Below the pieces are notes generated by a model. The model was not told the origin of the DNA and did no database searches. It worked only from the letters and a program-made list of their open reading frames with translations. The position numbers and the translations under genes were made by a program. A DNA stretch of 64,000 nucleotides from Neophaeotheca triangularis (lineage: Eukaryota): the NCBI GenBank assembly GCA_054600435.1, contig BAAIJX010000057.1:1-64000 (forward strand), in the 5' to 3' direction. Of this stretch, positions 4,466 to 57,766 are shown in pieces. Position 1 is the stretch's first letter, and each line of letters starts with the position of its first letter.

Positions 4466-4503
4466 GGATGGAAGGATGGTTGGATGGATGGGTGGATGGA
4501 TGA
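4466..4503. repeat. Imperfect (GGAT)n microsatellite in the RPB12 3' region
   Basis: ggatggaaggatggttggatggatgggtggatggatga. Confidence 0.6.
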
Positions 4504-4517
4504 ATGAGCGAGCGTCT

Positions 4518-8453: not shown

Positions 8454-9524
8454 GGAGGCTAGAGCCAAGGGGTTGGAGAGGATCACGTTGCGAAGACTGG
8501 GTTGCTGGATGAGTCGAGACAAGAAGAGGTTCGAAGCCGATTCAGAGTGAGACGGCTGGAAGGATCAAGGTTGATTTTCTGTCTGTCCGTGTCGACGAGC
8601 GTGCAACACAGCTACTTATATGGCGGTCTCCCTCCTAGCACACGCCTTATTTCATACCTCGCCCTGATGTCAGTGCAAGCCACGGGATAGAAAGCATAGT
8701 CTTTTGAGTGAACAAAAGCATCCAGGTGTTTTAAGGGATGCCAAATCAGAATCACTCTTTACCGCACGCACTGCTCCACTCACGTAGGTATACTGAAATG
8801 TCACCAGGATGAAGAGGTAAGCCCCGGACAAAGACTAGCTCACAATCTATATTCTATGCGAGCAATTGGAGCGAAGGATCCTTTCCCTGGCAATCACCGG
8901 CGCCACTTCCCATGGGTCTTGAATGATGAGACTTATTCGTCAATTTGCTCTTCACTGACCTCGACTCCCGCGACCGGCAAGGACGGCCCGTCGACGCCGG
9001 GAAGGCTTCACCCGACTTGAATGGTAGCTTTAGCAGGCATTGGATAGCAGTTTCATCGAGGTCGCCGAGGCGGAGATGTACAGGTGATACTTTCCGGCTC
9101 CAACGACTTTGAAAGGGACTTGCGCATACAGCGGACCTGTATCCCCACGACGGCTTTCGCCGAGGGATTGACATGGGGGCTGTCGGATCTACCGAGCGCG
9201 ATCGGTTGTACAAGGGGTTGCACAGTCTTAGTGGGAGCAGGCCAGTCAGTCTTCTCGGCTGGCTGGTAATCTCTCATAGTTTGGGGGTACTTGACGAGGG
9301 GAGGCTCAGGAACAGAAGACGGTAGCAAATCGGTATCTTTTGCCTCATCGGGCTTACTAGGTACATGGCTTCCTACGCTAAGCCATGAGCACCTTGTCTT
9401 CGTTCACGCAGCAACATTCCGGTTTTTCCATCTCACGCTCCTCGACACGAACGCAACGTCGTCCACTCCGAGCTTCCACTCCATACGCTTCAACTTACCC
9501 CCCCCCCCAAAGCGAACAACCTAC

Positions 9525-11987
9525 CTACCTACTCAAAACCCCACGTACAACCCCCTCGAGCTCCAAATTCCCCTTGACAGCCAACTCGCCAATGCCACTC
9601 CCCCCACTCCCCTCTCTCAACCACCTAGCGAGCAAATCATTCGACTCCTTGGGCTTGACAGCCGGCGAAACCGTACCCACAGTAATGTGCGCAGTCTGGT
9701 TGACCGTGTGGAAAACCCCCGGCGCATCGCCCTCTCCCCCTTTGGGAGCAAGTCTAACGACAAAAGCCATGACCCTATCGTCCCAGACAAGTCTCTCGAG
9801 ACGCACATCGCAGACGCCGAGTTTGACATCGGGGGAAGCGTAAGCGCGCTCGGCGTTGGGGGCGCTGACTTTTTCGTGTAGACTGGTGAGTGCCGCCCAG
9901 TAGTCTTTGTGCTCGGAGGCGGCGGCGCGGTGGATGAGGGTTACGTGGAAAGCAGATTGCAGGCGTTGATGGGTTTTGAGGGTTTCGTACATTTGTGCGG
10001 TTTCCGGGGGGGTGTCGCGGAAGATGGCGTCGAGGATGGTGGTGATGCGGGTTGTAGGGACTTGAACGGCGAAGTATTCGAGGGCGCGGGGCCTTTGTTT
10101 GCTGTTGTTGGGTTGGGGTTGGGAACCGTTTTGGGGCTTGGGGTTCTTTGGTTTGGCCCCGTTGATCTCGTGTTTGAGGCTAACGGTATAGCCGTGGAGA
10201 GCGGCTTCGATGGCTTGGTCCATGTCATATTCGCTCGGCATTTGCTGCGTGGTGAAGAGTTTGGGGTATTGTTCGTAGAGTTTGGTGATGATGGTTTCGA
10301 GGTTTTCTCTTGAGGAGAGACAGGGGTCGAGGTTGATGACGCTGTCAAATCCATCGTCGGGTGGGTTTTGCTGGTTGACAGGCTCAAATCTGTGCATGAA
10401 GCCTTCCATAATGCCGATAATCTCCTGTTCGCCTTTGGTCGACGGGTGGATGGTTTGGTGGTTGTCACCGCGCTGGAGGACTCGCTCACGTAAGGCCTGG
10501 CGGATTTTGTCGTAGTCGCTGCGGTCGTGCGCGTAGTGCATGCAGACGAACCGAGCACGAGGCACCACTTTGGAGACGTCTTCGATGAGCTGCTTCCTCT
10601 CCCGACGCTGGTGGTTGTTGCGATCCGCAACCATAGCGGCCTGGGTTTCAAGCTCTTTCGCGCAAGCAGTGGCGAAGGCTTGCGGTTTCTTTCCCTTGAT
10701 CGTGATGTTGTCGTTCTGAATATGACCCCAGCCGAAGAGCTTGCACAGAGCTAGGGCGACTGTAGTCTTACCGCAGCCAATGGTGGCAACAGGTACGAGA
10801 ACGATATCCTGAGCCGCGTCTTGGTGGGCAGCTTCGCCTTCGAGCGCCTCCTGTCGAATGATATCCGAACCCTTTAGCCCCCGAGAAGCCAAGAAGTCGT
10901 CGCGCATTTTGATGATGCCGTGGTTCGCCTGGTATGCTTTGGCGAGGTCGGGCCTTCCATGAAGCTGCCTACGAGCGAAGTCGATATACTCCTCGGTGAT
11001 CTTCTTGTGCTGTTTGTACCGTGGCTCTTTGCCCGCGATGATGGCCTTTGTGCACTCTCGCCATTGCCGGTACATAAGGTAGGGCTCATCGAACTTGTAC
11101 TTGAAAAACCAGTCATGCCATTCGTCGCTCCCCGCTTTGGACTGGCATCTAATGACGAAGCCTTCGGTGTCACGTCCAGCGTAGTTGCCAGTTTCCGCAA
11201 TCTTATCGAGAAAGCTCTTCACGTCGTTCAGGCTGTCCATGGTGATGTACTGCGTCTTCTTGAATCCCCACTCGTCTGCAAACTTGTCGACCAGGTGATG
11301 TGGGTAAGTTGCAAACTCTGGTAGGTTAAGGTTGATGCCATGAAGATACAGCCCAGCACTTTCCGGAGTGTAGGCTAAAACGTGCTCCTCAAACTCATCA
11401 TCGCACAGCTCTGCCACCGCGGTTGCGTTCATCGCCCTGAGCTGGCTGGAAAGCTGATGCCGGTTTCTGCCGATCCTTGCAAGGTGACGGTCAACCCATT
11501 CCTCTCCGACCTTTGCATGGCTGGCTTCAGTATCGGTCCTTGAACCTGTCGAGTGTTTGCTGCAGACCAGCAGTGTGCCGTCTGGGAGACCGGAAATGAA
11601 GATGATGCACCCATTCTCCTTCACGCTGAGCTCGTAAGGTCCACGGGTATTTTGCTCGACATTGGGCCACTCGGTCTCACGAACTTCGCCGTGGTTGAAA
11701 AATTTGTCGTACCCTCTCGCCACGATTTCAGGCTGTCCATGTTCGTTTAGTGCAGTGAAGAGTCCTCTGGCGTAGGTGGGGAGAATAGGCTTCTTGAAAT
11801 CCCACTCTTGGAACTTCCAGGAGTCGACAGTGATATCGGTTCCGTCGACGCTGTAGGTGTTCTTCTTGCAAGAGTAGCCTCCCTTGGCTTTCCCTTTGCC
11901 TTTGTTGTTTTCAAGCCCTTGAAGCATGGTCGCCACTTCGGAAGCATCCTGAGGGCGGTAGGGTGGTGCTTCTTCCCGGATCGCCAT
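9525..11987 (-). CDS. TRL1: Fungal tRNA ligase Trl1 (ligase, kinase, cyclic phosphodiesterase), 820 aa
   Basis: ARGLF, RGYDKFFN, KENGCII (adenylylated Lys), EGFVIR, FFKYK, P-loop-like ATIGCGKTT, ADRNNH, and the 2H motifs HVTL and HITV. Confidence 0.96.
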   Translation of the reverse strand: MAIREEAPPYRPQDASEVATMLQGLENNKGKGKAKGGYSCKKNTYSVDGTDITVDSWKFQEWDFKKPILPTYARGLFTALNEHGQPEIVARGYDKFFNHGEVRETEWPNVEQNTRGPYELSVKENGCIIFISGLPDGTLLVCSKHSTGSRTDTEASHAKVGEEWVDRHLARIGRNRHQLSSQLRAMNATAVAELCDDEFEEHVLAYTPESAGLYLHGINLNLPEFATYPHHLVDKFADEWGFKKTQYITMDSLNDVKSFLDKIAETGNYAGRDTEGFVIRCQSKAGSDEWHDWFFKYKFDEPYLMYRQWRECTKAIIAGKEPRYKQHKKITEEYIDFARRQLHGRPDLAKAYQANHGIIKMRDDFLASRGLKGSDIIRQEALEGEAAHQDAAQDIVLVPVATIGCGKTTVALALCKLFGWGHIQNDNITIKGKKPQAFATACAKELETQAAMVADRNNHQRRERKQLIEDVSKVVPRARFVCMHYAHDRSDYDKIRQALRERVLQRGDNHQTIHPSTKGEQEIIGIMEGFMHRFEPVNQQNPPDDGFDSVINLDPCLSSRENLETIITKLYEQYPKLFTTQQMPSEYDMDQAIEAALHGYTVSLKHEINGAKPKNPKPQNGSQPQPNNSKQRPRALEYFAVQVPTTRITTILDAIFRDTPPETAQMYETLKTHQRLQSAFHVTLIHRAAASEHKDYWAALTSLHEKVSAPNAERAYASPDVKLGVCDVRLERLVWDDRVMAFVVRLAPKGGEGDAPGVFHTVNQTAHITVGTVSPAVKPKESNDLLARWLREGSGGSGIGELAVKGNLELEGVVRGVLSR

Positions 11988-12559
11988 GGTGGAGGTTTTG
12001 TCTGCTCTTTGTAGAGCTTTACTGGGTGGTTTATCCACTGATATTCGTGTTAGGTCGTCAAAGGAATTATGGTAGAAGTTGATTGTTACGATAATAATCC
12101 ATGGATGTTGACGAAACTTCGCAAGCAGCTGCGACTTCAGGCAGAAACGCTCTGGAGGGAATTGTGGCCCAACTATCAATTCTACCGCAGAAAATGACTC
12201 ACATGGTTTGGAGGCGTCGTTGTTATTATCTGAATTACAACGTAAGGTATCCAGGATATTCCAAAGCACAGTAGTAGTACGTACGAACGGTCAAGAAACG
12301 TTCCATTGAGTTGGGTAAGGTAAGACATGCCAGCCAAGCCACACTTGCGCCACAGCAAACGAACGCTTCACATTATTCACATCGGCTACCTAACAACCTA
12401 CTAGTAGGTACCTTATGAGCCAACACCCGGCGAACCATTCCCGACCCCGTCCGTCTTGTTGGACTTTACCCACGTCCCATAAGATACCAACAATCTGATC
12501 TAGCAAGACGTGCTTGCAGCACAGCACAGCTTCTGTACTCATCCCTCCGAGAAGCCTCA

Positions 12560-13774
12560 TCAGTCTCCCGAGCCTGTGCTCGCGCTTGTTGCATGCACCT
12601 TCTCCGATAAGAGCAGATCCTCTACGCACTCAGCCGAGACGTTTCCCATACCGTGATGCACGATACCGCCGCAGTAGTGCGTCTTGATGGTACCCTCAAT
12701 ATGCTTCCCCATAGCCAATTTGGTCAGTCTCAATATGTGATGTATCTTCAATTTCGCAAAATCCGACGTCGGCGAAATGTTCTTCTTGAGCGTCTCAGCC
12801 AGGATGGTAATCGCAAAAGCTCTGTCCATGAAACAGATGCAAGCGCGGTTGTTGTAGTCCATAAAGGAGCGGAAGTGTTTGTCCCGCTTCATGGCATCTT
12901 CATCAACTGACTTCTCATCTGGCTGCATAACGAACTGGGGCTCTATGCCGGCACGCTCGGCAGCCTTTTGAATTAGTGACTGGAGGTCTTGCTGCGACCA
13001 GGACTTTGCGAGAACCTTGACCAGGATAGGCTTCATCTTCTGAAAGATCTTGGCCTTCGTCTTGAGGTTCTTGAAGATCTTGATGTTCTCGGGGCCAAAG
13101 TTAAACGACTGGTGCATCTTGCCAGCGTATGCTTCCTTTTGCGTTGACCCCTGTGGAAGTTAGCAAAGTCACTTTCAGACTGAAAGGCAGCATGCACTGA
13201 CGTATTGCTTGGCTCTTGTTGGCTGGTCACCGCCTGGCATATTGGTGGATAGCTGGATCTTAATGTCGCCGTCGTAGCTGAATGGTTTGACGATTGTGGT
13301 GTACATCTTGTCGTCGCTCCAAAGCTCTTTGCAGAACTTCTTGATGTCTTCGGTCGAGATGCGAGGGTCTTCTCTTGGCAGAAGGAACTGAACGTAGGGT
13401 CGGAAGCGCTCGACAAACGGATGATCCTTTTCTATAGCCTTCGCCTCGGTCGCGCAGTCCTTGCAAGGGCACTCGACCAGGAAAGGGTCTTCTGCTCTGC
13501 AAGGTTGAGAGTCGAAGGTGAAGATACCGTAATCATGAAGACGAAGAAGACCGGGCACCAGATGGTCGGTTTCGTGTTCCAGTTGGTGAGGGACGTATGG
13601 CGTGAGATGGATTTGCCGAACGAGGTACTTGCGGTTGAGTTGGAGGATGTCGTCGTACGTTTTGGCATTGTCCCACAAAGCTTGCTCCTGATGCTTCTCG
13701 TCGTCTGGCCGGACGTAGTGGGCCTTGAAGTACGCTGCCAGCTTTTCCATCTCAGGCTGCTGGGAGGATGCCAT
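12560..13774 (-). CDS. Hypothetical protein with a DUF6919-like N-terminal region; intron 13151-13201
   Basis: Two ORFs join in frame across a GTCAGT...GCTAAC...CAG intron. Motif LLRLHDYGIFTFDSQP...RPYVQFLLP. Confidence 0.6.
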
Positions 13775-14392
13775 CGTGACGGGGTCTCGGGGTCGTACGT
13801 GACGAGAGAGCAAGAGTTGTTGTGCCACCTGTCAGCTGGGTGAATTGACCTGATGAAAGTAGTTGGAGTGCAGGTGGTCAGAGGGGTTGGTTTGAAAGCA
13901 GTCCAGTAGCAGAAATGGTTGAGGTGTTAGCGTGCAGGTTGCCGGCGATGGCGTTCCAGCGTAGGCTCCAGTCGCGTGAAAGGCGTAGGCGTCCACGTCG
14001 CGTGATCTTGTGATCCAACACACCTTCCTCTTCTGTTGCGCGTTGAAACGCAGCGACAGTGTGTCTTCTTATATGTGCAACTTAACATGAGGTGGGCGGA
14101 GGCAAATCCAAGAAAGGGCAGGTGTGTGCCTGACTTTCATGCAGCTTTTCTTTCATCTGCGTCAATCCAACGTCCCCTTAGCCCGGGACAGAGTGCCCTA
14201 CAAAGCGCCTTGTGCCTGCCAACATTGTAGTGGATAGTCCAGGCCAGTGTCATGAAAGCGTCCTACAGCAGGCCAAAGCCATGCCCACAACTCGTCCACG
14301 AAACACCAATGTATCCCCTTCCATGGCCAATGCTCCTTACTCCAGCCCAATATCCAAACGAACCCCTTCAGTCAGACTCCTCAATCCCACCC

Positions 14393-14908
14393 TCACCAAA
14401 ACCCTCGCCCAGCCCCTGCACCCAGAGGCTGCTGCTTGCCCCTCGCCATCCGCGCCCCAGCCTCCTGATCCTTCCAATACTTATACTCCCGGCCCCAAGC
14501 CTCCATCCAATACCCAAAGTCGTTCATCACACCCTCCGGACCACGGGTATACAGCCACAAGCCCAACAACACGGCCCCTCCCCAAAAGACGATGCGCCAG
14601 GCCAGCCGCACCCAGAACATGACAGCCTGATAGAGCATGTTGAGGATTTTGAGCGAGATGAAGAAGATGACGAGTAGGAGGGCTATGGTCGCGAGGTCGG
14701 GTTTTTGCGTTAGGTTTGTGATGAGCGGGAGTAGGTAGGCGCGGGCGTAGGTTGTGAGGAGTGTCGTGTAGTTGAGGGCTTGGCGGAGGTAGGGGGAGTA
14801 GTCATTGTCGTTGGAGTGGAGGAAGTGGACGGCCCAGTCTTGGGAGGTGTGTTAGTGCGTCGGTCGTCGTGAGACGAAGGTCTGAGGCTTGCCTTGAACC
14901 ATGTCCAT
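14393..14908 (-). CDS. APQ12: Apq12-like nuclear envelope membrane protein; GC-AG intron 14839-14892
   Basis: Spliced product MDMVQDWAVHFL...PDLATIALLLVIFFISLKILNMLYQAVMFWVRLAWRIVFWGGAVLLGLWLYTRGPEG, with two TM segments in the Apq12 pattern. Confidence 0.75.
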
Positions 14909-15694
14909 GGCGATGGCTGTGGTGTGGTTTTCGGGATAGGAAAGTGGGCGTTTCTGGAGATGGAGTTCGGTGATGAAAGCGTTGGGTGCCCTGCGAGGGA
15001 TTCGAGATAGCTTTCAATGTGACAAGCAAGACAGTGAGCGGTGTAGAGTGTTTTGGAAGGGTCGTGTAAACATGTTGTTGATGTTATGTTGTCTATCACA
15101 TGCTGAGACAAAGTAGCTATATAGTGTGGAGAAACGATGGCCCGTGCATACATCGAGGTGAGGGTTTGGGGAGAGGTTGTGACCTACATATAACATTTAC
15201 ATATTGAAAGACCTGACAAGCTAGATAACCATAACGCCTCAAAGCCTTGAATGGGAAGATGTGCTCCAGCATGGCCTTTTCCAGAGGTGTCTTGCGGGTC
15301 CTGTTCGCTAGCAATGCCGCCACTGCTGAGGAAGAAACCACTCCAAGTTCCCGTTCAGCATCGCCAAAAAGAAGCGAGAGCTCCTAGTCATCTGTGTCTC
15401 GCCGTCCATCACTTCTGCCCCACTGTCAAAGAGTAAGAGTTCTGCAGGCCCCGCTACTCCCGTATAGAACTTTGATCTCCTTGAAAGTGAGAGGTTAAAA
15501 AACTTATTGCATTCAGACCTCTGGTATGGGATATATTTACGTATTGCCATTCTGTACATTTCCATTCTGTAATCGTAACGACAGTGCGAACATCAAAACG
15601 CAAAAATCCCGGGTATCCCGCTCGAAAACGCACGGCAACACAGCAATCAAAAGACACTTTACAGCAAGCGAGCCAGCGCTACCTGATGACATCC

Positions 15695-16918
15695 TCAAGC
15701 CAGCTCATGTCTGCCAACAGTACTGTCCTTGCTCCTGAGCGGTCTCCACCCATCCTCGCCATCGCTTCCACTGCTCTGTTCTCTCAAGCTCCTGCCCCTG
15801 CCCGCGTCGTCTGATCTCTCATCACCGCTGAAGTTGAACTCCGACATCTCCGACCACGAAGGGTAGTGTACTTGCGGAGAGTGTCTGCGTTGAGGGTGCT
15901 TGGCGGGCACGATGGGCGAGACCACGTCGTCCGCTTCGCCGTCTTCGGGCGACGAGAAGGGGTTGTCGTGGTGCACGGGTTGTTGGGCTTTGTTGCCCAT
16001 CATCATCATCATTGGGGAGAAGGGCGTGGGTGGTCGATCGGGGTTCGAGGACTCGGATGGTCGGGCCGTGGATGCTGAGCGTCTGGTTGTTTCGTGATCG
16101 TGGGCTAGCTCAGCGGGAGTGTGCTGCTCAGTGGTCGAATGGCTGTTGTGGTTCGAAGCCGCTGCTGCGGATCGGTCTTCCGGGGTGAAGAAAGGGTTGC
16201 CGTCGGAGTTTGAGGCTTGGGTGTATTGCCCGGCGAATGCGGGATGTTTGGCAATTGGGGGTGTACGGAAGTCCGAAGAGCGATTGTAGTGGTCGACCCA
16301 TTCTTGTGAAGGACCGCTGTGATGATTGTGGTTGTGGCCGTTGTTGGCGGCAACCATCTCGGGTTGAGAGTGTCGCCAGCCACCAATTTCGCTGTCAGTG
16401 ACGGAGCTTCTTCGTGCGTTGAAGTACGAGCCAGTGCTTCGTTTTCGGCGACGCATGCACCAGAAGAGAAAGCCCATCAATGCCAATGCAACGACTCCGA
16501 CGACTACCCCAACGATGATGCCGACACGGCGATCCAGTCCACCACTGCCTCCAGATCCCGACGCGCTTGCAGACTCTGACGCGGTGGGAGATGCTCCTGC
16601 GCTAGCTGCAGTCGATTGAGCTACAACGGAGCCACTTTCCGTTGTGAAGCCCGCTGGTGCCGAATTCGCGTTGTAAGTCGTGCCACCAATCACCATGCTC
16701 GATGATGGCGCGTTGTCGACATTATAAGTTTTGCCATCTATCACTACGGCTGATGGCCAGGTCAAAGCAGCGACGTCCGTTAGTGTGGCAGAAGGATAGT
16801 GTGATGACAAAAGGCCTTCTGCCTGCTCCAACAAGTGTCCCGGTACATCCGTGATGGTCGAGGAGGTCGAAGTTGTCGCCGATGCGGCTTCCTGCCTGGC
16901 AACAGTAGTGGTCGCCAT
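15695..16918 (-). CDS. Single-pass membrane protein: S/T-rich ectodomain, TM followed by RRRKR, disordered tail (Mid2/Skg6/Axl2-TM-like architecture)
   Basis: 407-aa ORF; VGIIVGVVVGVVALALMGFLFWCMRRRKR; NPF motifs in the tail. Confidence 0.8.
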   Translation of the reverse strand: MATTTVARQEAASATTSTSSTITDVPGHLLEQAEGLLSSHYPSATLTDVAALTWPSAVVIDGKTYNVDNAPSSSMVIGGTTYNANSAPAGFTTESGSVVAQSTAASAGASPTASESASASGSGGSGGLDRRVGIIVGVVVGVVALALMGFLFWCMRRRKRSTGSYFNARRSSVTDSEIGGWRHSQPEMVAANNGHNHNHHSGPSQEWVDHYNRSSDFRTPPIAKHPAFAGQYTQASNSDGNPFFTPEDRSAAAASNHNSHSTTEQHTPAELAHDHETTRRSASTARPSESSNPDRPPTPFSPMMMMMGNKAQQPVHHDNPFSSPEDGEADDVVSPIVPAKHPQRRHSPQVHYPSWSEMSEFNFSGDERSDDAGRGRSLREQSSGSDGEDGWRPLRSKDSTVGRHELA

Positions 16919-44608: not shown

Positions 44609-45918
44609 TCAATCGTCCTGATCCACCTTCTCCCAAGTCAAACTACCTTGACTAGATCTGAGCGTCTCCTCTCCGCTGCTTTCTCTTACCTCATCAACCT
44701 TGCCCTTCCGTCTACTCGCACCCATCATCCACCCCACAACCCCACCCGGCACCCATCTTCCAATAACATCATACGCCAGACTACCCCTACCCACATACCA
44801 AGTCCCCTTTGGCTTCTTCGCTACGAGCGCATCAAAAACAGCATCATGCAGCTTCCTAACTGGCGTCGCCCTCGTCCTACCCACCGCCTGCCCCTCCCTC
44901 TTCTGCCTCGCAGTCACAGCCGGAATATCAATATGCCCCAATTTAAAATGCGCCATTCCGACACCCGAATCCCTCAACTCCGCCGCCAACGAGTGCGCGA
45001 ACCCCTGCAGAGCCCCGTACACAGTGTTCTCCACGCCGTGGCCGGGCAAGCGCAGACTCGGCGTGATGCTCGGCGTCAGCATCAGCAGCCTGGCCTGGTG
45101 CTCCACGACGGATGGCAGCAGCAACTGCGTGGTCGCAATGGTGTTCAGTACTTTTGCGTTCAGCGCGTCACTCCATTCCTCGCTGCTGATGTCCTCGATG
45201 CCCGCGGCCGGCGTCGCAGCAGTGTCAGGTGCGAGCACCAGGCCCACCAGCCGAAGCCTGTGCGACTCGGCGCCCTCGAACGCCCAGTGCGGTCGCCCCA
45301 GTAGGTTCGCGAACTGCGATAATTGTTCTCTTGCCGTAAAAGGGTCGGTGAGGTCGAGACGCAAGGGCAGCACGTCGGCGCGCTGCTGGGACCGGATGTA
45401 GTGCTCGTCCTCGGCAGTGCTGGCTACCACGTACACAATGAAACCTCTGCGTTCGAGGTCCAGACTCAGCGCGCTGGTGACAGGCGAAGCGGCAGCGCTG
45501 CCAGCGAGGATAACGACATCTGTACGGGCGCCGCTCGGGCTGCGGCGGGCGCGGCGCTTTTTGGGTTTGTTGTTGCGGATGTAGATGAAAGTGCCTATGG
45601 AGCCTGTCGTGACGAAGGCGAGAATTGCTGCCGTCAGGGCGCGGTGACTGGAGATCCAGTTTTGGACCAGTTGGAACGTTGTCGGGGGTGGCAGTCGGCG
45701 GGGTTTCGGGGGTTGGCGGGCGAAGGTGGAATCGGAGGGGATCCAGTCGCGGAGCTGGAGTGCTACTTGCTCGAAATGGCGCTCGACGTCGTTGGCGATG
45801 TCGTTGAACTGGGTTCGAGCCTGGAGAGGGTCATATTGTTAGTATGGTCGAAACGAGGGGTGATTGATTGCCGCGAGCCGGTACATACGTAATCGAAGAG
45901 CTGCTGAGCGTCCGTCAT
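44609..45918 (-). CDS. DUF1776/Ysc83-like SDR-fold protein; intron 45821-45888
   Basis: Spliced start MTDAQQLFDYARTQFNDIANDVERHFE; RRARRSPSGARTDVVILAG, LDLERRGFIVY, YVGRGSLAYD. Confidence 0.8.
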
Positions 45919-46412: not shown

Positions 46413-46895
46413 ATGCTTGCTGGCAACCACAAGAGCCCGCCTCGCCAGGAGCCCACCAATCTGACATTGGGACAACGACGCGAGTGGAACCGTGGGCCAA
46501 TCTTTGACATCTTCCCCTGTATCCCTCCAAGTGCTCTCGAACGCGTGCTAGACCTCTGTATCGACAAAGGCTTCACTTATGACCTCTCGGAATCCAAGTT
46601 TTACAACGCCCGGCGCTATACCAGCATCATTGTCGCCCACGTTCGGCATCAGTATAGCGACTACGACAGATTGCTGCAAGAGGAGCGGCTGGCGCGCTAT
46701 GATGCTCGCGCTGCGACTGCCGAGACGGTCTGGAAAGTGCTGCGGCAATGGTGCCCTTGGGATGAGTCCAACGAGGCCTTGAAGCGTTGCTACCACGCCA
46801 GCGTGGTGCTGCCAGAGCATCGCGGCAATGCATGGGATCCAATGGATATCGATGAAGATTCCGATGACGGGGGCGACCCTATGGATCTCGATTGA
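46413..46895 (+). CDS. DUF2293 domain protein
   Basis: FPCIP, AHVRHQYSDYDRLL..RYDAR..VLRQW pattern. Confidence 0.75.
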   Translation: MLAGNHKSPPRQEPTNLTLGQRREWNRGPIFDIFPCIPPSALERVLDLCIDKGFTYDLSESKFYNARRYTSIIVAHVRHQYSDYDRLLQEERLARYDARAATAETVWKVLRQWCPWDESNEALKRCYHASVVLPEHRGNAWDPMDIDEDSDDGGDPMDLD

Positions 46896-48867
46896 CGGTT
46901 GTGCTATTCCTACTCCGGCTACTTTTGCGACTCCTTGTACTGCTCTCATCATCGCTGGAATCAGGTCTTGCGTTGTCGGGGTGTTCTTCAGGCTCGTCGT
47001 CTTTGATATTCGGCTCGCGATCTCTGGTTAGCTCGCCGTCGGCCTCTTCGGTCGTCTTCTTCCAGTCTGACCGGTTGGAGCGCTTGTAGTGGTCTTCGAT
47101 CGATGACGCCGTCGGTTTCACATGCAGCCACACTTCGCCGCCTTCGCCAGGCGGCTCATGACCTTGACGGTTGGACAACAACCGCACCTTCTGAGCGGCT
47201 TTTGGAAAGATGCGAAACATCCATTCGTGTGGGATACGCAATCGAGCCGCCGTGTACTTTTGCTTCGGCATGTGCTTTTGTATTTCCGGAACCGCTTCCA
47301 AAGGCGCAAGATCGGCAGACAGAAGTTCTTCGTTGGTGTATGCTCTAAGCACATCTGCAAATTCTGATGGGAGAGCATGGCTGAGGAACTCGAGACTGGC
47401 GTTGATGTTCAAATCAAGCGCTCGTTGTGGGTCAGCCATTGACTTCAACGCGAAAGAGCAGAGTTTTGGGTAGAGAAGGGAAAAGTCGGATTGGTTAACA
47501 TGTACCGTGCCACGGACCGTCATGAGCCACGCAGGGGATCGAGAGGGTGCGTTCTGAGCCTCTTGAACGACGTTAGACACGGTTGCGAAGTTCTCGGGCC
47601 AGTAGGTAAAAGCTTCGCTGTTGATAGCCAGCAGAGGTATGTCGATGACGTTGCTGACTTTAGTCCTCTCCTCAATTTTTTTAGAGGCAACTCCCCAAAT
47701 ATCATAACAAATCCCCTGGGAGATATAGGGAAAACGATTGTTGTCACGCATCATCTCGCAGGCAGTGGCAGCGCCAAACGAATGTCCAGCGGCCGTGACA
47801 TGGGTAAGATGAATTCGATGCTTCCACTGATCAAATTGCACCCCATTCAGGCCGTGCGAACTGGATCCCTTATACCCTTTACGCCTCAAATTCTTTCGGA
47901 CAATCTCTTCGCCATGGCCCTCGTTGATCATCCTTAGCACTTTGTAGCTTTCCTCCAGCTCCGCTATGCGCAAGTCGATTTGCGCGGCCCGGAGATCGCT
48001 ATCCGGGCCCTGCGGATTTTGAGGGGAGGTGTCAAAAGGGTTATCCCTGGGATATATATACTCTTTCTTTTCGTAGCCTCGGCGTTTGTCCTCTGCATGG
48101 TGGTGCACGCTTCCCTTGGTTTCGCGTTCATCTGCGCTGCCCTCTTGCTCGGCTTTCGGAGCATGATTAACATAGGTCCGCGGCCCGGAGCCATCGCGAT
48201 GCTCAACGGCGCAGACGACAAAACCATAGCTTGCAAATTCGCCGCACATTGAAGAGTACATCGTCCTTGTCCCGCCAAGACCGTGACTGAATAGCATGAC
48301 CGGAAACTTGGGCATCTTCGTCGCCTCCTGCGGCTTCGACCCTTCGCGCGTCTTCACGGAAACATTCTCGTCCCTAACATTGACCTTGGCCGCCCAGTGC
48401 TGCGCTATCGGCGCGTTGCGGTACGCAGGCAGTTTCGTAAACATCGTGGGTAAGAAGATGGGGTAAGCCAGACGACCCATCCCAGCGAAGTTTCCATAGC
48501 CCTGCGCGATGCCCAGCCTAGGCCTCCCCAGCCACAACTCTCGCGAATACTGGAAGGGATCCTTCTCGTCGGCCTGGTGGGCCTCGCGGGAGACCGGGTA
48601 GTACACGGTCATGAGAACAGTCTCCAATTGCAGTGCGTATTTGTGATCACGTTTGATTTCGGAAAAATGTCTTGGGTTGTCCACGGGGACTTCGATCTCC
48701 ATGGTGCCGACGGAGTAGGGTCCGGTGTATGTTGGCAGCGATCGTCCAGGGAACAGCAAATGGTCCCTCCAACCCCTTGGGGGTCTTGCTTTGGGATCTT
48801 GTGGATTCGGGACATTCTCCGACGTGTCGGCACCCAATGGAGGTGGGTTCGATCCTGGTTTTCTCAT
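46879..48867 (-). CDS. Platelet-activating factor acetylhydrolase-like lipase
   Basis: GPYSVG, FSHGLGGTR, YGFVVCAVEHRDGSG, GHSFGAAT, INSEAF, HVNQSDF. Confidence 0.93.
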   Translation of the reverse strand: MRKPGSNPPPLGADTSENVPNPQDPKARPPRGWRDHLLFPGRSLPTYTGPYSVGTMEIEVPVDNPRHFSEIKRDHKYALQLETVLMTVYYPVSREAHQADEKDPFQYSRELWLGRPRLGIAQGYGNFAGMGRLAYPIFLPTMFTKLPAYRNAPIAQHWAAKVNVRDENVSVKTREGSKPQEATKMPKFPVMLFSHGLGGTRTMYSSMCGEFASYGFVVCAVEHRDGSGPRTYVNHAPKAEQEGSADERETKGSVHHHAEDKRRGYEKKEYIYPRDNPFDTSPQNPQGPDSDLRAAQIDLRIAELEESYKVLRMINEGHGEEIVRKNLRRKGYKGSSSHGLNGVQFDQWKHRIHLTHVTAAGHSFGAATACEMMRDNNRFPYISQGICYDIWGVASKKIEERTKVSNVIDIPLLAINSEAFTYWPENFATVSNVVQEAQNAPSRSPAWLMTVRGTVHVNQSDFSLLYPKLCSFALKSMADPQRALDLNINASLEFLSHALPSEFADVLRAYTNEELLSADLAPLEAVPEIQKHMPKQKYTAARLRIPHEWMFRIFPKAAQKVRLLSNRQGHEPPGEGGEVWLHVKPTASSIEDHYKRSNRSDWKKTTEEADGELTRDREPNIKDDEPEEHPDNARPDSSDDESSTRSRKSSRSRNSTTVNRDP

Positions 48868-49750
48868 GTCGATGATTGACGTTTAAGGAATCGCGAGACT
48901 GGATTTCGACGTTTTGGCAGTATTCGGATATATTTCCCACCTTCGAAACCGTCCCTGGCCTTGAGACTCACTTAATGCCGTCGAACAGTATCTGGTTATG
49001 GGCTTGTTTCGAGGCAGTATGCCAGTCTTGCGATGGGTAGCACCGCGTACTTCGAGTATTTTGATGCGCCTCTCAGCGCGATCTTTTTCTGGGGGAAGAT
49101 CTCGCCATGCCCCTACGCCGGTGCGGGAGGTGGCGACAGCAGATACAAAAGAATCAATGCAACCTCCGCAGGTTCCCGAGCGCGCACTTTTGTTGTTCAA
49201 GCCGAACCACCACCCCGCCGACTTCTTGCAAAACTCAGCGAGCCGTCGACTGCCGGCGACTGAGTCAAAGAAATAATAATGTGGATGTTGTTACGCAGCG
49301 GCCGGTATCCAGCCGAGGAGTTAGGTAGTCGACTTCGCAACCTAACCCTTACGCTTGGCGTCTAGCTAGGTAGAGTCAAAATGGCGCCCACTGCTATCAC
49401 ACGCGTTTTGGAGATTGCGGTCGTCGATCTTTCACCCCATCAGCCCTATTTCCTCCTATCTAATTGTAATCTGTGAGTCTTGGCCCAATGCACATGGTAT
49501 TTCGAATACCTCACTGATGCATCACTGGCTGATTTGATTGAAACACCTCGCTAAGCAATGCAAAGCCGTCTAAGCACTTAGCAAACGCTTGGAATTTACC
49601 AACGTACCTTACGAAGATTCAGCGATATAAGCGTCACGCTACTGAAAGCTAATCTCTCTCCAGTAGATTCCCGTCCATACCTCCTACCTACCTCACCCGC
49701 AGATAGGTAAGGTATAGAGTCGCATCAGAAAGCCACCACATCCCACATCC

Positions 49751-50684
49751 CTACTCGTCCTTGTGGTCTTCGTCACCCTGTTCGGCGTCTTCAAGCAAGT
49801 CCTGCACCGACATCTCTTCCGCCAGGTCGAAGCTTACAACCTCCTCCTCTTCCTCTCTTGCGCGCTTCCGGCCTAGGATGGACCAAGTGACCTTGGAGTC
49901 AAGCATCGACACTTCGACCGGTCTACGCCTTTGATTTCAGCTTTTCCAAACCACTTTTCTGTATCCAACGGCAAAATTGTTCTCGCCATCCATTTAGAAA
50001 TTCTTCTTCAACTGCTTGGACATTGAACAGCTTGCGCCGGGCCCTGAATCGGCTACAGCCCCGATGCCAAGTATGTCGGCACCGTCAGTAGCAACCAGGC
50101 TCACAGGACTCGTCAGCTCGACATCAGTACGGCGGTGGCGACCCTCGCTGCGAGTTATTTTTGGGTCCAATGCCGTCTGCAACTCGACAATGAGGTAGCT
50201 CTTCGCGCCGTGTTTGATACCCTCTTCGAGCCACTCTCGGGCTTTGCTGTCGCCAGTGCACAGATTGCGGAAGACTGATCGGGGCTGTCTCAGCTGATAC
50301 CTTGTAACGAGGATGGAATCCAGGCGTTCGCTTGAACTCTCGCCGCCCCCATGTGAGGTTCTCAACAGCTGAGTCAAGGCGCCGTTAAAGGCCAAGTCTT
50401 TGCTACGCAAGATTAGTATGTGCAGTGCTCGGGAAACGACGAGAAGCCCTTCTGCGACTGGGAAAGGCTCCCAAACCTCATGCCTGCCACTTTTTTGACC
50501 TACCTTGTCGATAACATGGCAGCGAAGGATGTAGCACTGGATGGGAAAATTTCTTCCGCAGACAGAGGCGGCTCTCTGGGACGTATACGTCCAAGATCGG
50601 ATGCTTGATCGACTCGACGAGCGTTCCTAGACTCAACGCTTTTGTCGGTAACATTTCGTCGAGAAGCAGCATTCGGGAGTCCAT
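49751..50684 (-). pseudogene. Fungal gasdermin-like gene (RCD-1/HET-Q1-type), ~277 codons; intron 50403-50503; one frameshift and two premature stops
   Basis: Reconstructed: MDSRMLLLDEMLP..LSLGTLVESIKHPILDVYVP / ..RYQLRQPRSVFRNLC..AREWLEEGIKHGAKSYLIVELQTALDPKI..ELTSPVS..F*MDGENNFAVGYRKVVW..W..GRKRAR then an acidic tail. Frameshift near 50573; stops at 49994-49996 and 49937-49939. Confidence 0.7.
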
Positions 50685-50899
50685 TGTCGACGCCTGGCAA
50701 AGTGCTTGACGCTACGGTTTGTCTTGGCTTGTTTTGCGCTTTGAGAGTAGACTTGAGACGATTTGACCGTATGATTGCGCTTTTATGCAACTAAAGTACT
50801 GAGCTGGAATTAGAGCAGGTGAGTGAAAGCAGTAATGCCGTTGAGCTATGATCCGCGTAGTGTGGACGAGGCTGAGGCTGAATCAGCTGTTGAACCAGC

Positions 50900-50933
50900 T
50901 ATATATATATATATTATATATATATATATATAT
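50900..50933. repeat. (TA)n microsatellite in the divergent intergenic region
   Basis: tatatatatatatattatatatatatatatatat. Confidence 0.9.
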
Positions 50934-51096
50934 GTAAGGCGCTTAGAAGGACGTGAGAAACGCCGCGCCTACACGTGCAGCAACAACACAAAGAGACAAC
51001 CGAACCTACCTAGGTAATGGACAAGCTTACGTAAATACCAGAAAAGGGCATACGACTCCGCGACCACGCGTGGCCAAGACACTTGACGATTACAGC

Positions 51097-53822
51097 ATGT
51101 CTGACGCTTCCGCGTCTCTGTGCACCTCAGTGTCGGATTGCAAGCCCAACGGCACATTTTCAGCACTGGATGAGGCGGAGCAACTCAACACCAACTACCT
51201 CGAGTTTTCGAGCCAATACACTCGTACTTCTGACCTTGGCCTTTTACTGCAAGCACTTGATGCTATCCAAGGAGCTGTGGACATAGTCACCAACAGCGTA
51301 ACAGCTAAGCACGAGCGGTAAAGAAGTCAACATGCTGGATACCTCAACAACCTAGGTCGGTGTTGCCGATTGTACTTTGAAGCGACAAATGAGCTCCATT
51401 TTCTGGCCAGGGCAATCGACGCTGGTGAGATGAGTCTTAACGTTGCGAAGCAGGCCTCGCCATTGCACTCCTTGTATTCCACCAATTTAAGCGAATCGCT
51501 GGCTTCCCGATGCCTTGCAGGTGGGCATACCTGTAGCGAAGGTGACATCTGGCGTACCCTCGAGTTGGCACGTGAAGCTGCCATGTGGTCTGAGGAGGCC
51601 AAAGAACATGAAAATGATGCGCTTGCGACTCTGGCATCACGGCTGAGTCAAATCCTCAGCCACATCAGCAGGGATGACCAATACCTGAAAGAAGCAATCG
51701 ATATCGAGAGAAAGTTGGTCGATAAAGACTGCAAAAACCGTGCCGTCTACCTTTTCAACCTAGCCGAGGATCTTTGTCTACTCTTTGCGCGCTACGGCAG
51801 TCAGGCGGATCTGCTCGAGGCTTGCGCAAACCCTGAAGGCGCTTCGCAACAATTTGGTCCAAAGAATGTTCACTACTTTAAAAAATGCCCGGCGCTTCAC
51901 CCACTGTACCATCGACTTGACGTTTGAAACGAGGAATCCGACTGGCCTTGACAACGCTTTGAAGCTACTTGACAGCATTCAACCATCCACTTTGGCGGCA
52001 CGCGACCGCGCCGCTCTGCACCACACCAGGAGTAGATTGCTTTGCACAAAGTAAGATTTGGCTTCCGACTTTAAAGATCTCAATCAATCTATCGATGCTG
52101 CGGAGACCGCCGTGGGCCTCTCGAAGTGCCATGGCTAGGTCGGGGACTAAGATGCTCTTTACGCACAGCTAAGCAGCCGTCTTAGCAAGCGCGCAGAGAG
52201 CTCGTTATCTCTACAACACATGGAGATGGCATCAAATATGCCAGAAAAGCTGTCGAGGCATGAGCTGCTTACCCGGCTCGCCAAGCTTTTGCGTACAGCA
52301 CTATCGGCAATGCGCTCGCAATGCGACACACCCTCTTCGGTGGCACGAATTACATGAAAGACACTCTGGTCGCAAGACGCCAGACAGTGGCACTGCTTCC
52401 CGACGACCATCATGACAAACCTACCCGCACGCACAACCTTGCAGTTAGCCTAAGAGCCCAGTTCGACTCCTCTGGAATCATGGCTGCGCTAGACGAGAGT
52501 ATCATGCTAGAGAGACAGGCCTCCTCCAGCGAGAATAACGATTTGGCTGACAGGGCCATGATCCTGGACGGCCTCAGCATCTCCTTATCGGATCGCTATA
52601 AACTCGAAGGCAATAGGAGAGATCTAGACGATGCAATCCTTGCTTCAGAAAGCGCCGTCTCTGGAAGCCTCGACGATCAACGAAAGCCGGGATACCTCAA
52701 CAATCTGGCCAATCGTCTCAGCCATCGGTTCAGACGCCACAACAACAGATCCGACCTCGACGAGGCTGTGTCTAAAGTGAAAGAGGCGCTGCGTGCAGTT
52801 ACAGAAGAATCTCACAGTCATCGGATCTTGTACATGACTACGCTCAGCAATATGTTAGCTGAGCGGTTTGATGCCTTCCGCAGCCACGAGGACTGATGCG
52901 CAGACCAACTCGAAAACCTGCTGCAGTCTGTAACAGCGGCTAGAAGTGTTATAGCACTTGCCCCCGCTTTACACCCGCACTGGCATTGGTACGTTCATAA
53001 TCTTGGCCTCAGGTTGTAGCGGCTCTATGACACGGAGTCAGATGTTCGGAAGAAACGAGCGTATCTTGATGAAGCTTTGGAACTGGCCGAGCACTGCGTA
53101 CCCTAAGACTGGCGAGGTCAAAGGTCACCAAGAGGGCCGCCGCGAATAGGAAAATGGCTGCTTTGCTCAGTTGGCTTTGGGAGGTTGCGATTAGCCCTGT
53201 GCTCGACCATCTCAAACTTGAGCTGACCGAAGCGCATCAGCCCAGCACCAGGCTTTGGTGGGTGATGAGTGGTCCCCTTGGACTGCTAGCCTTACATGTG
53301 GCCGGGAAAGGGAGAAAGAATTCAGCTGCAGACGTTTACAACTACGTCGTGTCGTCTTACACCCCTAGCCTCACAGCTCTAGCTTTTGCGAGAGAATGTG
53401 AAGGAAGATCCGGCGGTATCTCTTCGACAGCCGCTCTCACCACCATGCCAGAGACCCCTGGCAAACTCGCAAATATATCCGCGGACCAGGAGTCAACCGC
53501 GATTGTTCAAGCTTTCGAATCAGCAAAGTCGCCGCATCAACTTCTTCAACTACGGCAACCGTCAGCAAAGCAGGCACTGTCAGCTGTCGTTGATGGAAAC
53601 ACTAGCATTCTCTATCTGGCCTGCCATGCTGATCCCGATGTCACCAACCCGTTACGGTCGTCATTGCTCTTCGGAAGCAATCCAGATGCTGCCTCACCAG
53701 ATCCAGATCGACTACCAATAGAGGAACTCATAACTGCACAAAAGAGCGCAACAGCCCTTCCTCAGCCGCTACGCCTTGCCTATCTGTCCGCCCAGCAGTC
53801 GGCCTCATCGACGAGAATATAG
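51097..53822 (+). pseudogene. TPR-repeat plus CHAT (caspase-like) protease, multiply disrupted and C-terminally truncated
   Basis: Repeated YLNNL.../DLDEA TPR-like units; CHAT signatures LSWLWEVAISPVL, RLWWVMSGPLGLLALHVAG, VVSSYTPSLTAL, LACHA, NPLRSSL, LAYLSA. Stops at 51319, 52052, 52136, 52148, 52894, plus frameshifts. Confidence 0.88.
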
Positions 53823-55789
53823 TGAGTGGCCCGACTTCTCCCCCCTTAGCAGTCTGCAAGAGTATACATACCACACCCCGAACACGTTTCCATCAGCCAC
53901 CTCTCGGGTCCTTGGCACAGTGGATAGTGCGCCTCACGCAAACTAGGGCCATAGAGTGCCCCTGACACTCACCGTGGGATCGTGTAGGGGTACTCTCGCT
54001 CCCCCTGAATAAGGAATGAGGAGAGCCCAGTTCGAATCTAGGAGGATCCAGTAAGTTGCTTCTCACACAATACCATCTTTTTGCTCCTCTTCTCGTTCTT
54101 GTGAGTTTTCTCATTACGCCGCACAATAGCTCCCTAGCTAGCTAGGGCTGTATCAACAATACTCACTCCCCCGTATTGGCTCTAGACTCGGTCGGGTTTA
54201 GGCACAATGATAGATAGTGCGTCTTGCGCAGGCAGACCTCGCGACAGCAGTATACATACCCGCCACTGGTGAAAGATGGCGGCGCGCTTGACGCTCACCG
54301 TGGATTCGTGGAGGGGTGTTTCTATGGGCATAGCAGTGTGAGGATTACAGGAGGATCCAGTAAACCTTTTTCGCTTGCGAGGTGTTCACGGCTCTCGTCG
54401 GCGGCTTTTCACCTTCTCCCGGCGAGAGAGACCTTTCTTTCTCTGGTGGAACCGTGTTGGGATGAGACTGCTACGAGAGATCTTGTCTGGACCTGCCTGT
54501 GACATCTGCTCCTCCTAGGAATTCGCCGGTGGGTTTGGAGTTGGGGTCAAGGAGGTCGAGCTCACTCTTCAGGGGTGATTTAGATCTCCTTTACTGGAGG
54601 CTTTCTTTAGGTGGTGCCCGCACATACCGCGTTGATGATTAATTGGTCGAGCTAAGTAAGGTTCCATTCTTCACTTGGGATGGATGGGGTTGTCAAAGTT
54701 TTGTTGTCATTTCCGATCCAGTTTTACAAGCTACATTGATTATGTATGAGTACGGAGGCAGATGTTGGTTAGTAAAAAGACCGACCGGCGTAGTTAGCTG
54801 TCTACTGTACCCAAGCCACACAGATACCACACCACGCCAAGCAGCGCCAAGCAACGCGAGATGCTCTCTAGTGGAGTGGGCGGGTCAATTCTGCTCGGGC
54901 AGAATGATTACTTACCTTACGGTGGTAGGTACCTAGGGCTGTCAACTAAGGCCCTCGGAAACTAGATACAGGTAGTTTGTATGTATGTGTGTAGTAGTCG
55001 TCTCCCTTTGCCTCACTCAAGTCTCAAAGTCGTGTTATGCTGACGTTTATATCAGTCGGCCAAGACTGATGGATGGATGACCAAGCACAACGGACGAGCA
55101 TCCAATGTGTTCTCATTACCATTGTCAAGATTGTCCAAAAGAGTTTGTGGCTTGACATTAATAAGTCAGTACTGACTGCAGGTGGGGGAAAGACTAAAAT
55201 TGAGTTTATGCTTTTGCGACTGTCACCACCCTCTTAAGGCTCGAACCGAGGAGACGACTCTTTCACGCCCGACTTTGTGGTGGCGGCACAAGACGGCAGT
55301 CGTCGTTGAGTTTTGAGTACTGGGTACTAGGTAGTTAGGTATTCTTACTTAGTTGATGAGTAGTCAACTACCTAACTTATACCATATCTATTCCTCCACC
55401 TACTTATCACCACTACTACTACTACTGGCAGAATAGCATCCCCCCAGAGCCAAACGACTACTACTACCTTGAGGCTTAAAGTCTTTGACCCCCGCCGCCC
55501 TTGTAATACGCCAACTACAACTGCCGAGTCAAGCCGCCCCCAGGTCATCCTTTCCACACAGCCCAGGCATTTCTTTCATTCATTCATTCATTGGTGCGCG
55601 AGCTTGACAAGCCCACTCCTCTCAAGCAAGAGTCAAGCTTGTTTGGTCCACTTCTTTAATCTGGAAGCGAGTGGCCAATATAGTACTATCTACTAATCAT
55701 CAGCCACTCACCAACATCTAATACCCTCAAGGTACTCGTAACTACTCGTACTCTTCACCTCTCGACTGCTTGCCTCAGCTTTGTTGAAC

Positions 55790-57766
55790 ATGGTCGACTT
55801 CTCCCAACGCGATCCCTACACTTGGCACGACCAGAAGGGATGGAGAGCCTACCGGGTATTCAGACCCGGCCGAGGCATGTATTGGGATGTTCGTCGACGC
55901 CTTCCCTACTACTGGTCCGACATCAAGGATGGCTTCAACTACCAGACAGCCGTCGGCACGGTTCGAATCTTCTTCGTCAACCTGCTCCCCGCCATAGCCT
56001 TCATGCTGGACATGCAACGCCGAACCGACGGCTTCTTCGGATTGAACGAGGCCCTCTTCTCTTCTGCATTGGCCGCGTTGGTCTTTAGCCTGCTCTCTGC
56101 CCAGCCCTTGACGGTCGTGGGAATTACGGGCTTGATCAGTTTGTTCAACTATACCATCTACGATATTGCTGTCGACCAGGGCATTGGGAACCTTTACCCG
56201 GAGTTCTTGGCTTGGGTCGGTATTTGGGCCGCCATCACGCATTGGTTGGCGAGTATCTTCAACTTGAACGACTACATGCGCTACATTACCGACTTTTCGA
56301 GCCATTCGTTTGGCATGTATGTTGGTATCATCTACATGAGTGAGTAGCCAGTCCGCTTCTCGTTCGGCCCGAGTGCATGTGCTAACAACATCACAGTCAA
56401 AGGAGTTGAGGAGCTGGTTGCTCAATTCGACGAGAACAATGGAGGATCTTTGAGCGCTGGCTATTTATCAGTAGTCATTGCACTTTGCTACTGGGCCAGC
56501 GTTTACTTTCTTGAATTCCTGGGATCGACCACATGGCTCACACCCATCGTACGCAAGATGCTGTCCGACTACGCCTACCCCATAGCCACAGTATGGTGGA
56601 CGGGCTTCTCTCACATCCCTGGCAGGATCGCCAATACAAACCTCCAACGACTCGAACACACCCGGGCGTTCTATCCATCCATCGATCGATCGTGGCTGAT
56701 CCCCTTTTGGGACCTACCCGTCAAGTGGGTGTTCGTGGCCCTCCCCATCGGAATCCTAATCACCCTCCTCTTCTACTACGACCACAACGTCTCCTCCCTC
56801 ATCGCCCAAGCCCGTAGCTTCCCTCTCACCAAACCCGCCGGCTTCAACTGGGACTTCTTCCTTCTCGGCTGCACCACCTTCATCTCCGCCATCATCGGCA
56901 TCCCCCTCCCTAACGGCCTCGTCCCCCAAGCCCCCGTCCACACCGACGCCTGCACCACATACGTGGAAAAGCTCGAAACCTACAGAGAAAAGGACGATAC
57001 CGAAAACGCCTCGACCCAACACCGACGCCGCAGACTCGTCGTCCCCCACGACACAAAAGAACAACGCGTCTCGCACTTCATCATGGCGCTCCTCTTCGTC
57101 GGCCTCATGACCGGCCCGCTCCTCACAGTCCTCGCGACCATGCCCCTCGGCCTCTTCTGCGGCGTCTTCTTCGTTGTAGGCTTCAGCAGTATCCAAGGCA
57201 TGGGCATCACCAAAAACGTCATCTTTCTGCTCAGCGAGCGACAATTCCTCGACCCTCAAGACCCACGACTGACGCTCAAACGCCGCCGCATCTGGTTCTA
57301 CCTCACTTTTCAAGGCCTGGGTGTCGCCTTCTCCGTCGCCATCAGCCAGACCATTGGCGCCATTGGTTTCCCCGTCATCATCATCGCCCTCATCCCCATC
57401 CGTTGGCTCCTGCTGCCCCGCATCTTCACCAAACACGAACTCCTCACCCTCGATGCACCGACTGCCGATGCCCCTGTCGTAATGGCGAGTATGGGCGGCC
57501 AGCCGGAATTACCCGAAGTCAGGCTCGCGAGAGCTAGAGGGGAGAACGTCGACGGCGATGGCGAGAATGCCGGGTATGAGGCGGGTAAAGGCCAGGGCGC
57601 TGGGGGGAGTAGTAGTGGTTTTAGCGAGGAGAGCAAGGAGCGGGAGCGCAACGTACGGGATCGGACTGGAGTCAGGGATACGGAGCATCTTGGTCTTGCG
57701 GGGGAGAAGGAGAGGAGAAATCCCGAGGGTGCTGTCGATCAGAATTCGAGGACAGGGCATCTTTGA
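55790..57766 (+). CDS. BOR1: SLC4/HCO3- transporter family borate exporter; intron 56340-56396
   Basis: DVRRRLPYYWSD, NLLPAIAF, QPLTVVGITG, LFYYDHNVSSL, GFNWDFFLLG, NGLVPQAPVHT, EQRVSH. Confidence 0.94.

Follow-up and report, generated by a model that had tools for sequence, protein, structure and literature searches.

The stretch analysed here (the window) comprised 64,000 nt of the genome of Neophaeotheca triangularis (contig BAAIJX010000057.1, positions 1 to 64,000 of the forward strand), and nt 49,751 to 53,822 of it very probably hold a two-gene cassette for regulated cell death, of the het-Q1/het-Q2-like class, that has become pseudogenised and is dead in both genes. One member, on the minus strand (49751–50684), was a gasdermin-like (het-Q1-like) pseudogene of about 278 codons on read-through, recognised by its phmmer relatives, tblastn alignments and gasdermin-fold models; the other, on the plus strand (51097–53822), was a TPR-CHAT (het-Q2-like) protease pseudogene, recognised by Pfam matches to TPR_10 and CHAT and by four tblastn segments lying in three frames. 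The interval between the neighbouring PAF-AH and BOR1-like genes contained no long open reading frame (ORF), but two divergent gene relics, with ATGs at nt 50684 (minus strand) and 51097 (plus strand) separated by 412 bp. An initial annotation, made from the letters of this DNA, had placed the pair at these coordinates, in this divergent layout and between these flanking genes, all of which proved correct, and had put the ATG spacing at about 410 bp.

Gasdermin relationship of the minus-strand gene

When the read-through translation of the minus-strand gene was used as a phmmer query against 1.84 billion representatives, 297 proteins were retrieved at E <= 0.001, including 57 at E <= 1e-10 and 5 at E <= 1e-30. 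These relatives were mostly 270–290 aa in length and were aligned from about residue 64 onward; the best of them had an E value of 6.3e-48 with 44% identity, which, among that many representatives, indicates that the pattern in the minus-strand gene was not due to chance. A profile built from 115 of the relatives matched four PDB sequences at E <= 10, all of them fungal gasdermins: RCD-1-1 of Neurospora crassa (E 0.0016, the only significant match), an MBP-RCD-1-1 fusion (0.043), RCD-1-2 (0.3), and the HET-Q1 pore chain (1.4). At the level of sequence, the minus-gene family appears to be related, by a weak margin, to one characterised member, RCD-1-1.

The gasdermin identity proposed in the initial annotation was borne out by a fold check on AlphaFold2 (AF2) models, for which gasdermins were returned first. 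The model of P0104, the closest intact relative, had a predicted local distance difference test score (pLDDT) of 80.3 and a predicted template modelling score (pTM) of 0.74. Gasdermins made up the whole of its ten best Foldseek matches (RCD-1 pore, E 1.2e-09) and filled VIA-align ranks 1–20 (Z 7.0–11.8). The best structural match was RCD-1 of N. crassa (PDB 8jyz, 8jyy, 8jyx; Z 11.8, 11.2, 9.8); the RCD-1 pore was matched with Z 11.8 and a root-mean-square deviation of 4.7 Å over 194 residues, followed by the RCD-1-2 crystal (11.2), a bacterial gasdermin (10.5), and the RCD-1-1 crystal (9.8). Cytolysins and MACPF proteins, with Z 5.2–6.7, were mostly below the gasdermins, four gasdermin entries also being found in that range. 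For exon 2 of the window itself, modelled with X at the two stops and with 71 relatives, the pLDDT was 72.9, and the top 7 Foldseek matches were all gasdermins, including the GSDMD pore (E 1.5e-04) and RCD-1 (E 2.2e-04). In the ESM Atlas, the nearest named clusters to the family were labelled Bact_GSDM or Gasdermin. From these models, the minus-gene family is predicted to have the gasdermin N-terminal (pore-forming) fold. The P0104 model showed long extended beta-hairpins, and pore-state gasdermins were matched at least as well as resting-state ones.

Several points weigh against this assignment. The profile match to HET-Q1 itself was not significant; the stronger fold test was that on P0104, a relative of 44% identity, and the model of the window's own sequence was of middling confidence and lacked exon 1. 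No significant Pfam match was obtained for any of the four minus-gene pieces (4/4) or any of the 12 small relatives searched (12/12), the relative P0117 giving a chance-level match only (E 0.036). This silence of Pfam was not weighed against the gasdermin reading, since no fungal gasdermin model matched any member of the family. A word-index protein search with window exon 2 yielded 220 candidates, none at E <= 0.001, and the single minus-gene sequence gave one irrelevant match in PDB (E 0.29).

That the gene encoded some other beta-rich protein, with a merely superficial likeness to gasdermins, is exceedingly unlikely. Such a protein would account for the missing Pfam match and for identities of only 10–16% to solved gasdermins, and the extended pore-like hairpins drawn by AF2 inflated the matches to other pore formers; it would not account for four PDB profile matches that were fungal gasdermins without exception, for gasdermins ranking above most cytolysins and MACPF proteins, for the matches to the RCD-1-2 and RCD-1-1 crystals, which are not in the pore state, or for a genomic partner of the protease class expected beside a gasdermin.

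Structure and lesions of the gasdermin-like gene

Tblastn searches with the relatives P0104 and P0105 covered residues 1–40 and 46/50–272. The gasdermin-like gene consisted of two exons. Exon 1 (50504–50684, minus strand) ran in one frame from the ATG at nt 50684 to about nt 50565, its last 22 or so codons lying in another; in a three-frame translation it was collinear with P0105 residues 1–60. The switch corresponded to a single +/-1 frameshift zone at nt 50560–50572, near codon 38–40, where the homology to P0104 and P0105 changed frame. Between the exons was a putative 101-nt intron of phase 2 (50403–50503, minus strand), with a GTAGGT donor, a CTAAT branch and a TAG acceptor; once it was removed, an 18-residue stretch was exactly collinear with P0105 across the junction. 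Exon 2 (49751–50402, minus strand) encoded most of the pore-forming domain together with an acidic C-terminal tail and ended at a TAG (49751–49753). Relatives on two metagenome loci, L001 and L002, had no intron at the matching position, indicating that the intron was gained or lost within the gasdermin family.

Two premature stops were located in exon 2. A TAA at about codon 198 of 278 (49994–49996) was situated within an aligned block, just ahead of the conserved strand GE..FA.GY[KR]K, and a TGA at about codon 217 (49937–49939) was aligned with the W of WKSW in P0104, P0105, and P0108. Translated straight from its ATG, the gene would yield 68 residues only; the frameshift aside, the first stop would truncate the protein ahead of the conserved core strand. 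Reconstruction of a product of about 278 aa required one frame change, removal of the intron, and read-through of both stops, in close agreement with the 277 aa or so estimated initially. The read-through tail was acidic, about 40 aa in length, and followed a conserved basic patch. All the motifs that had been picked out by the initial annotation (LGTLV..P..D, YQL..P..F, AREWLEE, SYLIV, FAVGYRKV, and the acidic tail) were present in the translations. With one frameshift and two premature stops, the coding sequence was not intact, and the minus-strand gene, as read from its sequence, is a predicted pseudogene of a fungal gasdermin-like family and not a working member of it.

Structure and lesions of the TPR-CHAT protease gene

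The plus-strand gene started with the ATG at nt 51097, and its last homologous frame ended at a TAG (53820–53822). TPR repeats and a CHAT domain, both predicted beforehand, scored above their Pfam cut-offs: TPR_10 (PF13374) in the ORF at nt 52264–52896, with 33.5 bits against a cut-off of 27.5 (E 3.9e-08), and CHAT (PF12770) in the ORF at nt 53073–53822, with 54.7 bits against a cut-off of 24 (E 1.3e-14) over profile positions 3–203 of 289. A search with the CHAT part alone, under length limits set for the full-length protein, retrieved, from 6,177 candidates, 102 proteins at E <= 0.001. The top three came from Dothideomycetes, namely P0002 of Delphinella strobiligena (52% identity), P0003 of Rhizodiscina lignyota (48%), and P0004 of Viridothelium virens (46%); the remainder were mostly actinomycete CHAT proteins sharing about 30–37% identity.

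Tblastn searches with P0002 to P0004 showed a collinear order in a shattered gene. P0004 residues 10–223 corresponded to nt 51175–51822 in a first frame, residues 243–359 to nt 51881–52237 in a second frame, residues 343–635 to nt 52189–53088 in the first frame again, and residues 914–1155 to nt 53085–53792 in a third frame, all on the plus strand. The TPR-repeat arm (51097–53103, plus strand), which aligned to the TPR arms of P0002 to P0004, was divided into three frame segments, with frame changes near nt 51822–51881 and 52189–52237; the whole gene contained at least four frame changes. Seven in-frame stops were found along the homology path, starting at nt 51319, 52052, 52136, 52148, 52261, 52894, and 53017. 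At nt 53085–53160 was the junction of an internal deletion, accompanied by a frame change, through which about 265 aa were lost: P0003 residues from about 640 to 905 had no counterpart in the tblastn searches with P0002, P0003, and P0004.

The CHAT domain remnant (53163–53810, plus strand) kept the His of the LACHA motif (53625–53627). Near its end (53784–53822), where the relatives possessed LSACC....LIDEN, the window had LSA-QQ followed by a frameshift, and homology ended at LIDENI (53821). The LACHA His and the LSACC Cys are presumed here, from what is known of caspase-fold proteases, to form the catalytic dyad. By the sequence, the plus-strand gene would no longer specify this dyad, the His motif being kept and the Cys motif lost. 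Downstream of nt 53822, tblastn gave nothing above noise for the C-terminal 110 or so residues of the protease. The description of this gene as fragmented in the initial annotation was right in that the gene was broken and fell short in extent, the disappearance of the catalytic Cys and of about 265 internal residues having been passed over.

It is very unlikely that both genes are intact and functional, with stops and frame changes that arose in assembly, belong to introns, or are bypassed. One frame change in the minus-strand gene is indeed accounted for by the canonical intron described above, but the stops sit in aligned conserved blocks, with the TGA opposite a conserved W, and the frame changes of the plus-strand gene are collinear and leave no room for introns, as between nt 51822 and 51881, where 20 P0004 residues face 58 nt. 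Some 265 aa are absent altogether, as is the Cys motif. Comparison among isolates rests on contigs and on one extra sample of the same organism (X2); a contig of X1, which may itself be the source of this DNA, showed 0 differences, and X2 shared most of the sequence.

Linkage to proteases and relation to known systems

In the catalogue of Clavé et al. 2022 (PMC8851545), a CHAT gene was located no more than 10 kb from 353 of 1,884 fungal gasdermin genes, and Q2L-6, a TPR-CHAT protein of Podospora, is reported there to process its neighbour Q1-6 through its CHAT domain. The window pair, divergent and with its ATGs 412 bp apart, lies within that distance of 10 kb. By eye, over the cells printed in Datasets S1/S2 of the same source, P0002 is indistinguishable from KAF1345096.1 (Delphinella) and P0004 from KAF2238011.1 (Viridothelium), each of which is listed there as the TPR-CHAT het-Q2-like partner of a het-Q1 gene; the species of the third best CHAT relative, Rhizodiscina, is not present in Dataset S1. 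Since the listed partners of het-Q1 gasdermins (PMC8851545, Datasets S1/S2) already include two of the three CHAT proteins closest to that of the window, the pair is a member of the published gasdermin/TPR-CHAT (het-Q1/het-Q2-like) class.

Named relatives of the window gasdermin came from overlapping species, among them P0105 from Lophiotrema nucula and P0259 from Viridothelium virens, and these two are presumably the gasdermin partners catalogued for those species. P0259 and P0004, both of Viridothelium, were each on a contig of 607,529 bp, a hint only of linkage. A more direct case was P0219, a predicted protein of 1,422 aa among the relatives retrieved by the gasdermin search, which combined a TPR arm, a CHAT domain (residues 850–1139) and a gasdermin-like part (residues 1203–1398); it demonstrates that the two components are adjacent, whether it is fused in nature or results from the merging of two gene models. 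A metagenome scan yielded 3 loci with gasdermin relatives, of which L001 and L003, at about 1.5 kb, were too short for linkage to be judged. L002, the only long one (15.9 kb, 1–15921), contained a gasdermin relative at nt 9154–10053 and, 7.8 kb away and divergent, a relative of the P0003/P0004 TPR arm with 53% identity that ran off the contig end. Linkage of gasdermin homologues to proteases, on which the initial annotation had made its proposal depend, was thereby found in P0219, in L002, and among the catalogued CHAT partners.

The module had also been called hidden. It is so in that gene callers would miss it, and not in the sense of a new kind, the class having been published in 2022 (PMC8851545); gasdermin plus TPR-CHAT pairs being known from fungi, nothing categorically new is added by the window. 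Its value is that of a documented pseudogenised example that would escape gene callers; inventories of cell-death and immune repertoires in fungi that draw on annotated proteins include too few of these relics.

Among known systems, Podospora anserina Q1-6/Q2L-6 (Pa_6_6615/Pa_6_6610) is likewise a two-gene cluster of a gasdermin and a TPR-CHAT protein and is, in PMC8851545, the sole pair of CHAT type whose gasdermin is described as being cleaved by the CHAT domain; unlike it, the window pair is broken in both genes. Further CHAT-type pairs listed in Datasets S1/S2 of that source are KAF1345094.1/KAF1345096.1 of Delphinella strobiligena, KAF2238010.1/KAF2238011.1 of Viridothelium virens, and KAF2123086.1/KAF2123085.1 of Lophiotrema nucula. 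The proteases of the Delphinella and Viridothelium pairs (P0002 and P0004), which are among the closest CHAT relatives of the window, share the LSACC..LIDEN motif region. The genes of these three pairs are annotated as intact proteins, whereas those of the window are pseudogenes.

Podospora HET-Q1 is equal in size (278 aa) and bears at its C-terminus about 40 aa of inhibitory peptide, which a protease removes by cutting at F238-A239, according to PMC13475620. Its partner HET-Q2 is an S8 subtilisin-like protease, whereas that of the window is of the CHAT type, and the genes het-Q1 and het-Q2 occur as idiomorphs in different strains, unlike the adjoining pair of the window. Neurospora RCD-1, the closest match in both profile and structure, is described in PMC13475620 as acting without cleavage, through two antagonistic alleles that lack an inhibitory tail. 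Bacterial gasdermin operons (PDB 8sl0, 9a84, 7n50-52) share the fold of the P0104 model, with Z 10.5 and 10.4, and, as described in PMC8851545, encode a gasdermin with a short C-terminal inhibitory peptide next to a caspase-like or CHAT protease, often with repeat domains. They differ in being prokaryotic, operonic and devoted to anti-phage defence, and their sequence identity is 11–16%.

Proposed mode of action

By analogy with these systems, a gasdermin-like pore-former gene and a TPR-CHAT protease gene would have been transcribed divergently from the shared 412-bp region. In intact relatives, the TPR arm may keep the protease inactive until a trigger is received; the triggered CHAT domain would then cut the short acidic C-terminal peptide off the neighbouring gasdermin, and the freed N-terminal domain would assemble into membrane pores and kill the cell. 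Parts of this mechanism have been shown in Podospora. For the clade of the window, the observations comprise domain content, fold and linkage, and we infer every step by analogy. None of the steps would be possible in this genome. In the gasdermin gene, the frame is shifted near codon 40 and the pore-forming domain is interrupted by two stops; the protease gene contains 7 stops and no fewer than 4 frame changes, has lost about 265 aa internally, and lacks both the catalytic Cys and a recognisable C-terminus.

Decay and variation among isolates

Indices of repeat-induced point mutation (RIP) were normal in both relics, with TpA/ApT of 0.67 and 0.71, (CpA+TpG)/(ApC+GpT) of 1.17 and 1.39, and GC contents of 0.53–0.54. 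RIP was therefore rejected as the cause of the decay, and the lesions in the window are ordinary substitutions and indels. The metagenome locus L002, in contrast, was RIP-like throughout, with a GC content of 0.37 and TpA/ApT of 1.1–1.9, and its two relatives carried 6 and about 10 stops; it is an independent death, by RIP, of the same kind of gasdermin/CHAT pair in another organism. Cassettes of this class have been lost in different modes, through ordinary mutation and deletion in the present genome and through RIP in this related metagenome contig.

In sample X2, a contig of 3,805 nt matched nt 50165–53900 over 3,728 nt with 53 differing letters. Among its fully supported differences listed up to nt 52657 (40/80), none fell in the five protease stops at nt 51319–52263, and no indel was listed at the gasdermin frameshift (50560–50572). 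An extra G was present behind nt 52230, joining two neighbouring protease frames at the site where the window changes frame, which indicates that the lesion there is private to the window's lineage. Another X2 contig joined nt 50194 to 29 letters equal to nt 53949–53977, so that nt 50195–53948 (3,754 bp) were absent. This deletion form lacks the first 130 or so codons of the gasdermin, together with the promoter region and all of the protease relic, and it occurred in the same run as the full-length form. Over nt 49879–50118, X2 contigs came in two variants of comparable depth (2 versus 11 and 0 versus 5 differences), which fits two haplotypes or copies in the sample. A repeat scan found no long direct repeats flanking the X2 deletion, the short two-copy matches that were detected being perhaps due to chance.

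From these comparisons, the decay predates the split between the two isolates sampled and continues. In the polymorphic deletion there is a hint of presence/absence variation like that of allorecognition loci. More tentatively, and with rather low probability, the pair may represent what was once an immune or allorecognition cassette and is now in the course of being lost, at least two states (the decayed pair and the 3.75-kb deletion) coexisting in the species, possibly within one sample. If so, it would, together with the RIP-killed L002, point to a recurrent and perhaps cost-driven loss of gasdermin cell-death modules; alternatively, null alleles would be kept beside intact ones by balancing selection.

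This last alternative, in which the locus is still segregating and the pair represents a null allele of it, other strains having intact or no gasdermin/CHAT alleles as at het and immune loci under balancing selection, is likewise rather improbable. It would agree with the presence in X2 of both the full stretch and the form lacking it, with the extra G, which shows that lesions differ between isolates, and with X4, a further sample of the same organism, in which sampled words from the stretch were not found and no contig could be matched to it, this being no proof of absence. No intact allele was seen, on the other hand, in the contigs of the two informative isolates; the listed X2 differences leave the five protease stops and the gasdermin frameshift unchanged, and the X2 contig with 2 differences over nt 49879–50025 could do away with no more than one of the gasdermin gene's two stops. 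In run X3, from a different organism and a different study, short contigs of low depth were near-identical to the TPR arm, at nt 51464–51718 (6 differences) and 51965–52230 (2 differences).

Flanking regions

The window had a GC content of about 0.54 and short introns and looked like fungal DNA. The divergent intergenic (promoter) region of 412 bp (50685–51096) had a GC content of 0.46 and contained (TA)n runs at nt 50900–50932. On the gasdermin side lay the PAF-AH gene (46882–48882, minus strand; PF03403, PAF-AH_p_II, Pfam E 2.3e-53), upstream of which was a gene with the fungal DUF1776 domain, related to short-chain dehydrogenases (44612–45838, minus strand; E 7.6e-64). On the protease side lay a gene of the bicarbonate/borate transporter family (55742–57763, plus strand; BOR1 family, HCO3_cotransp, PF00955, Pfam E 2.3e-37 and 7.2e-41). 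A tRNA scan over nt 48800–55800 found none.

The 1.9 kb or so separating the transporter gene from the protease relic (53823–55741) was without an ORF of 130 aa or more. Over nt 53823–55500, TpA/ApT was 1.30, (CpA+TpG)/(ApC+GpT) was 0.95, and the GC content was 0.50. A 34-nt repeat in two copies that were 82% identical (53958–53991 and 54284–54317) was also located in this interval.

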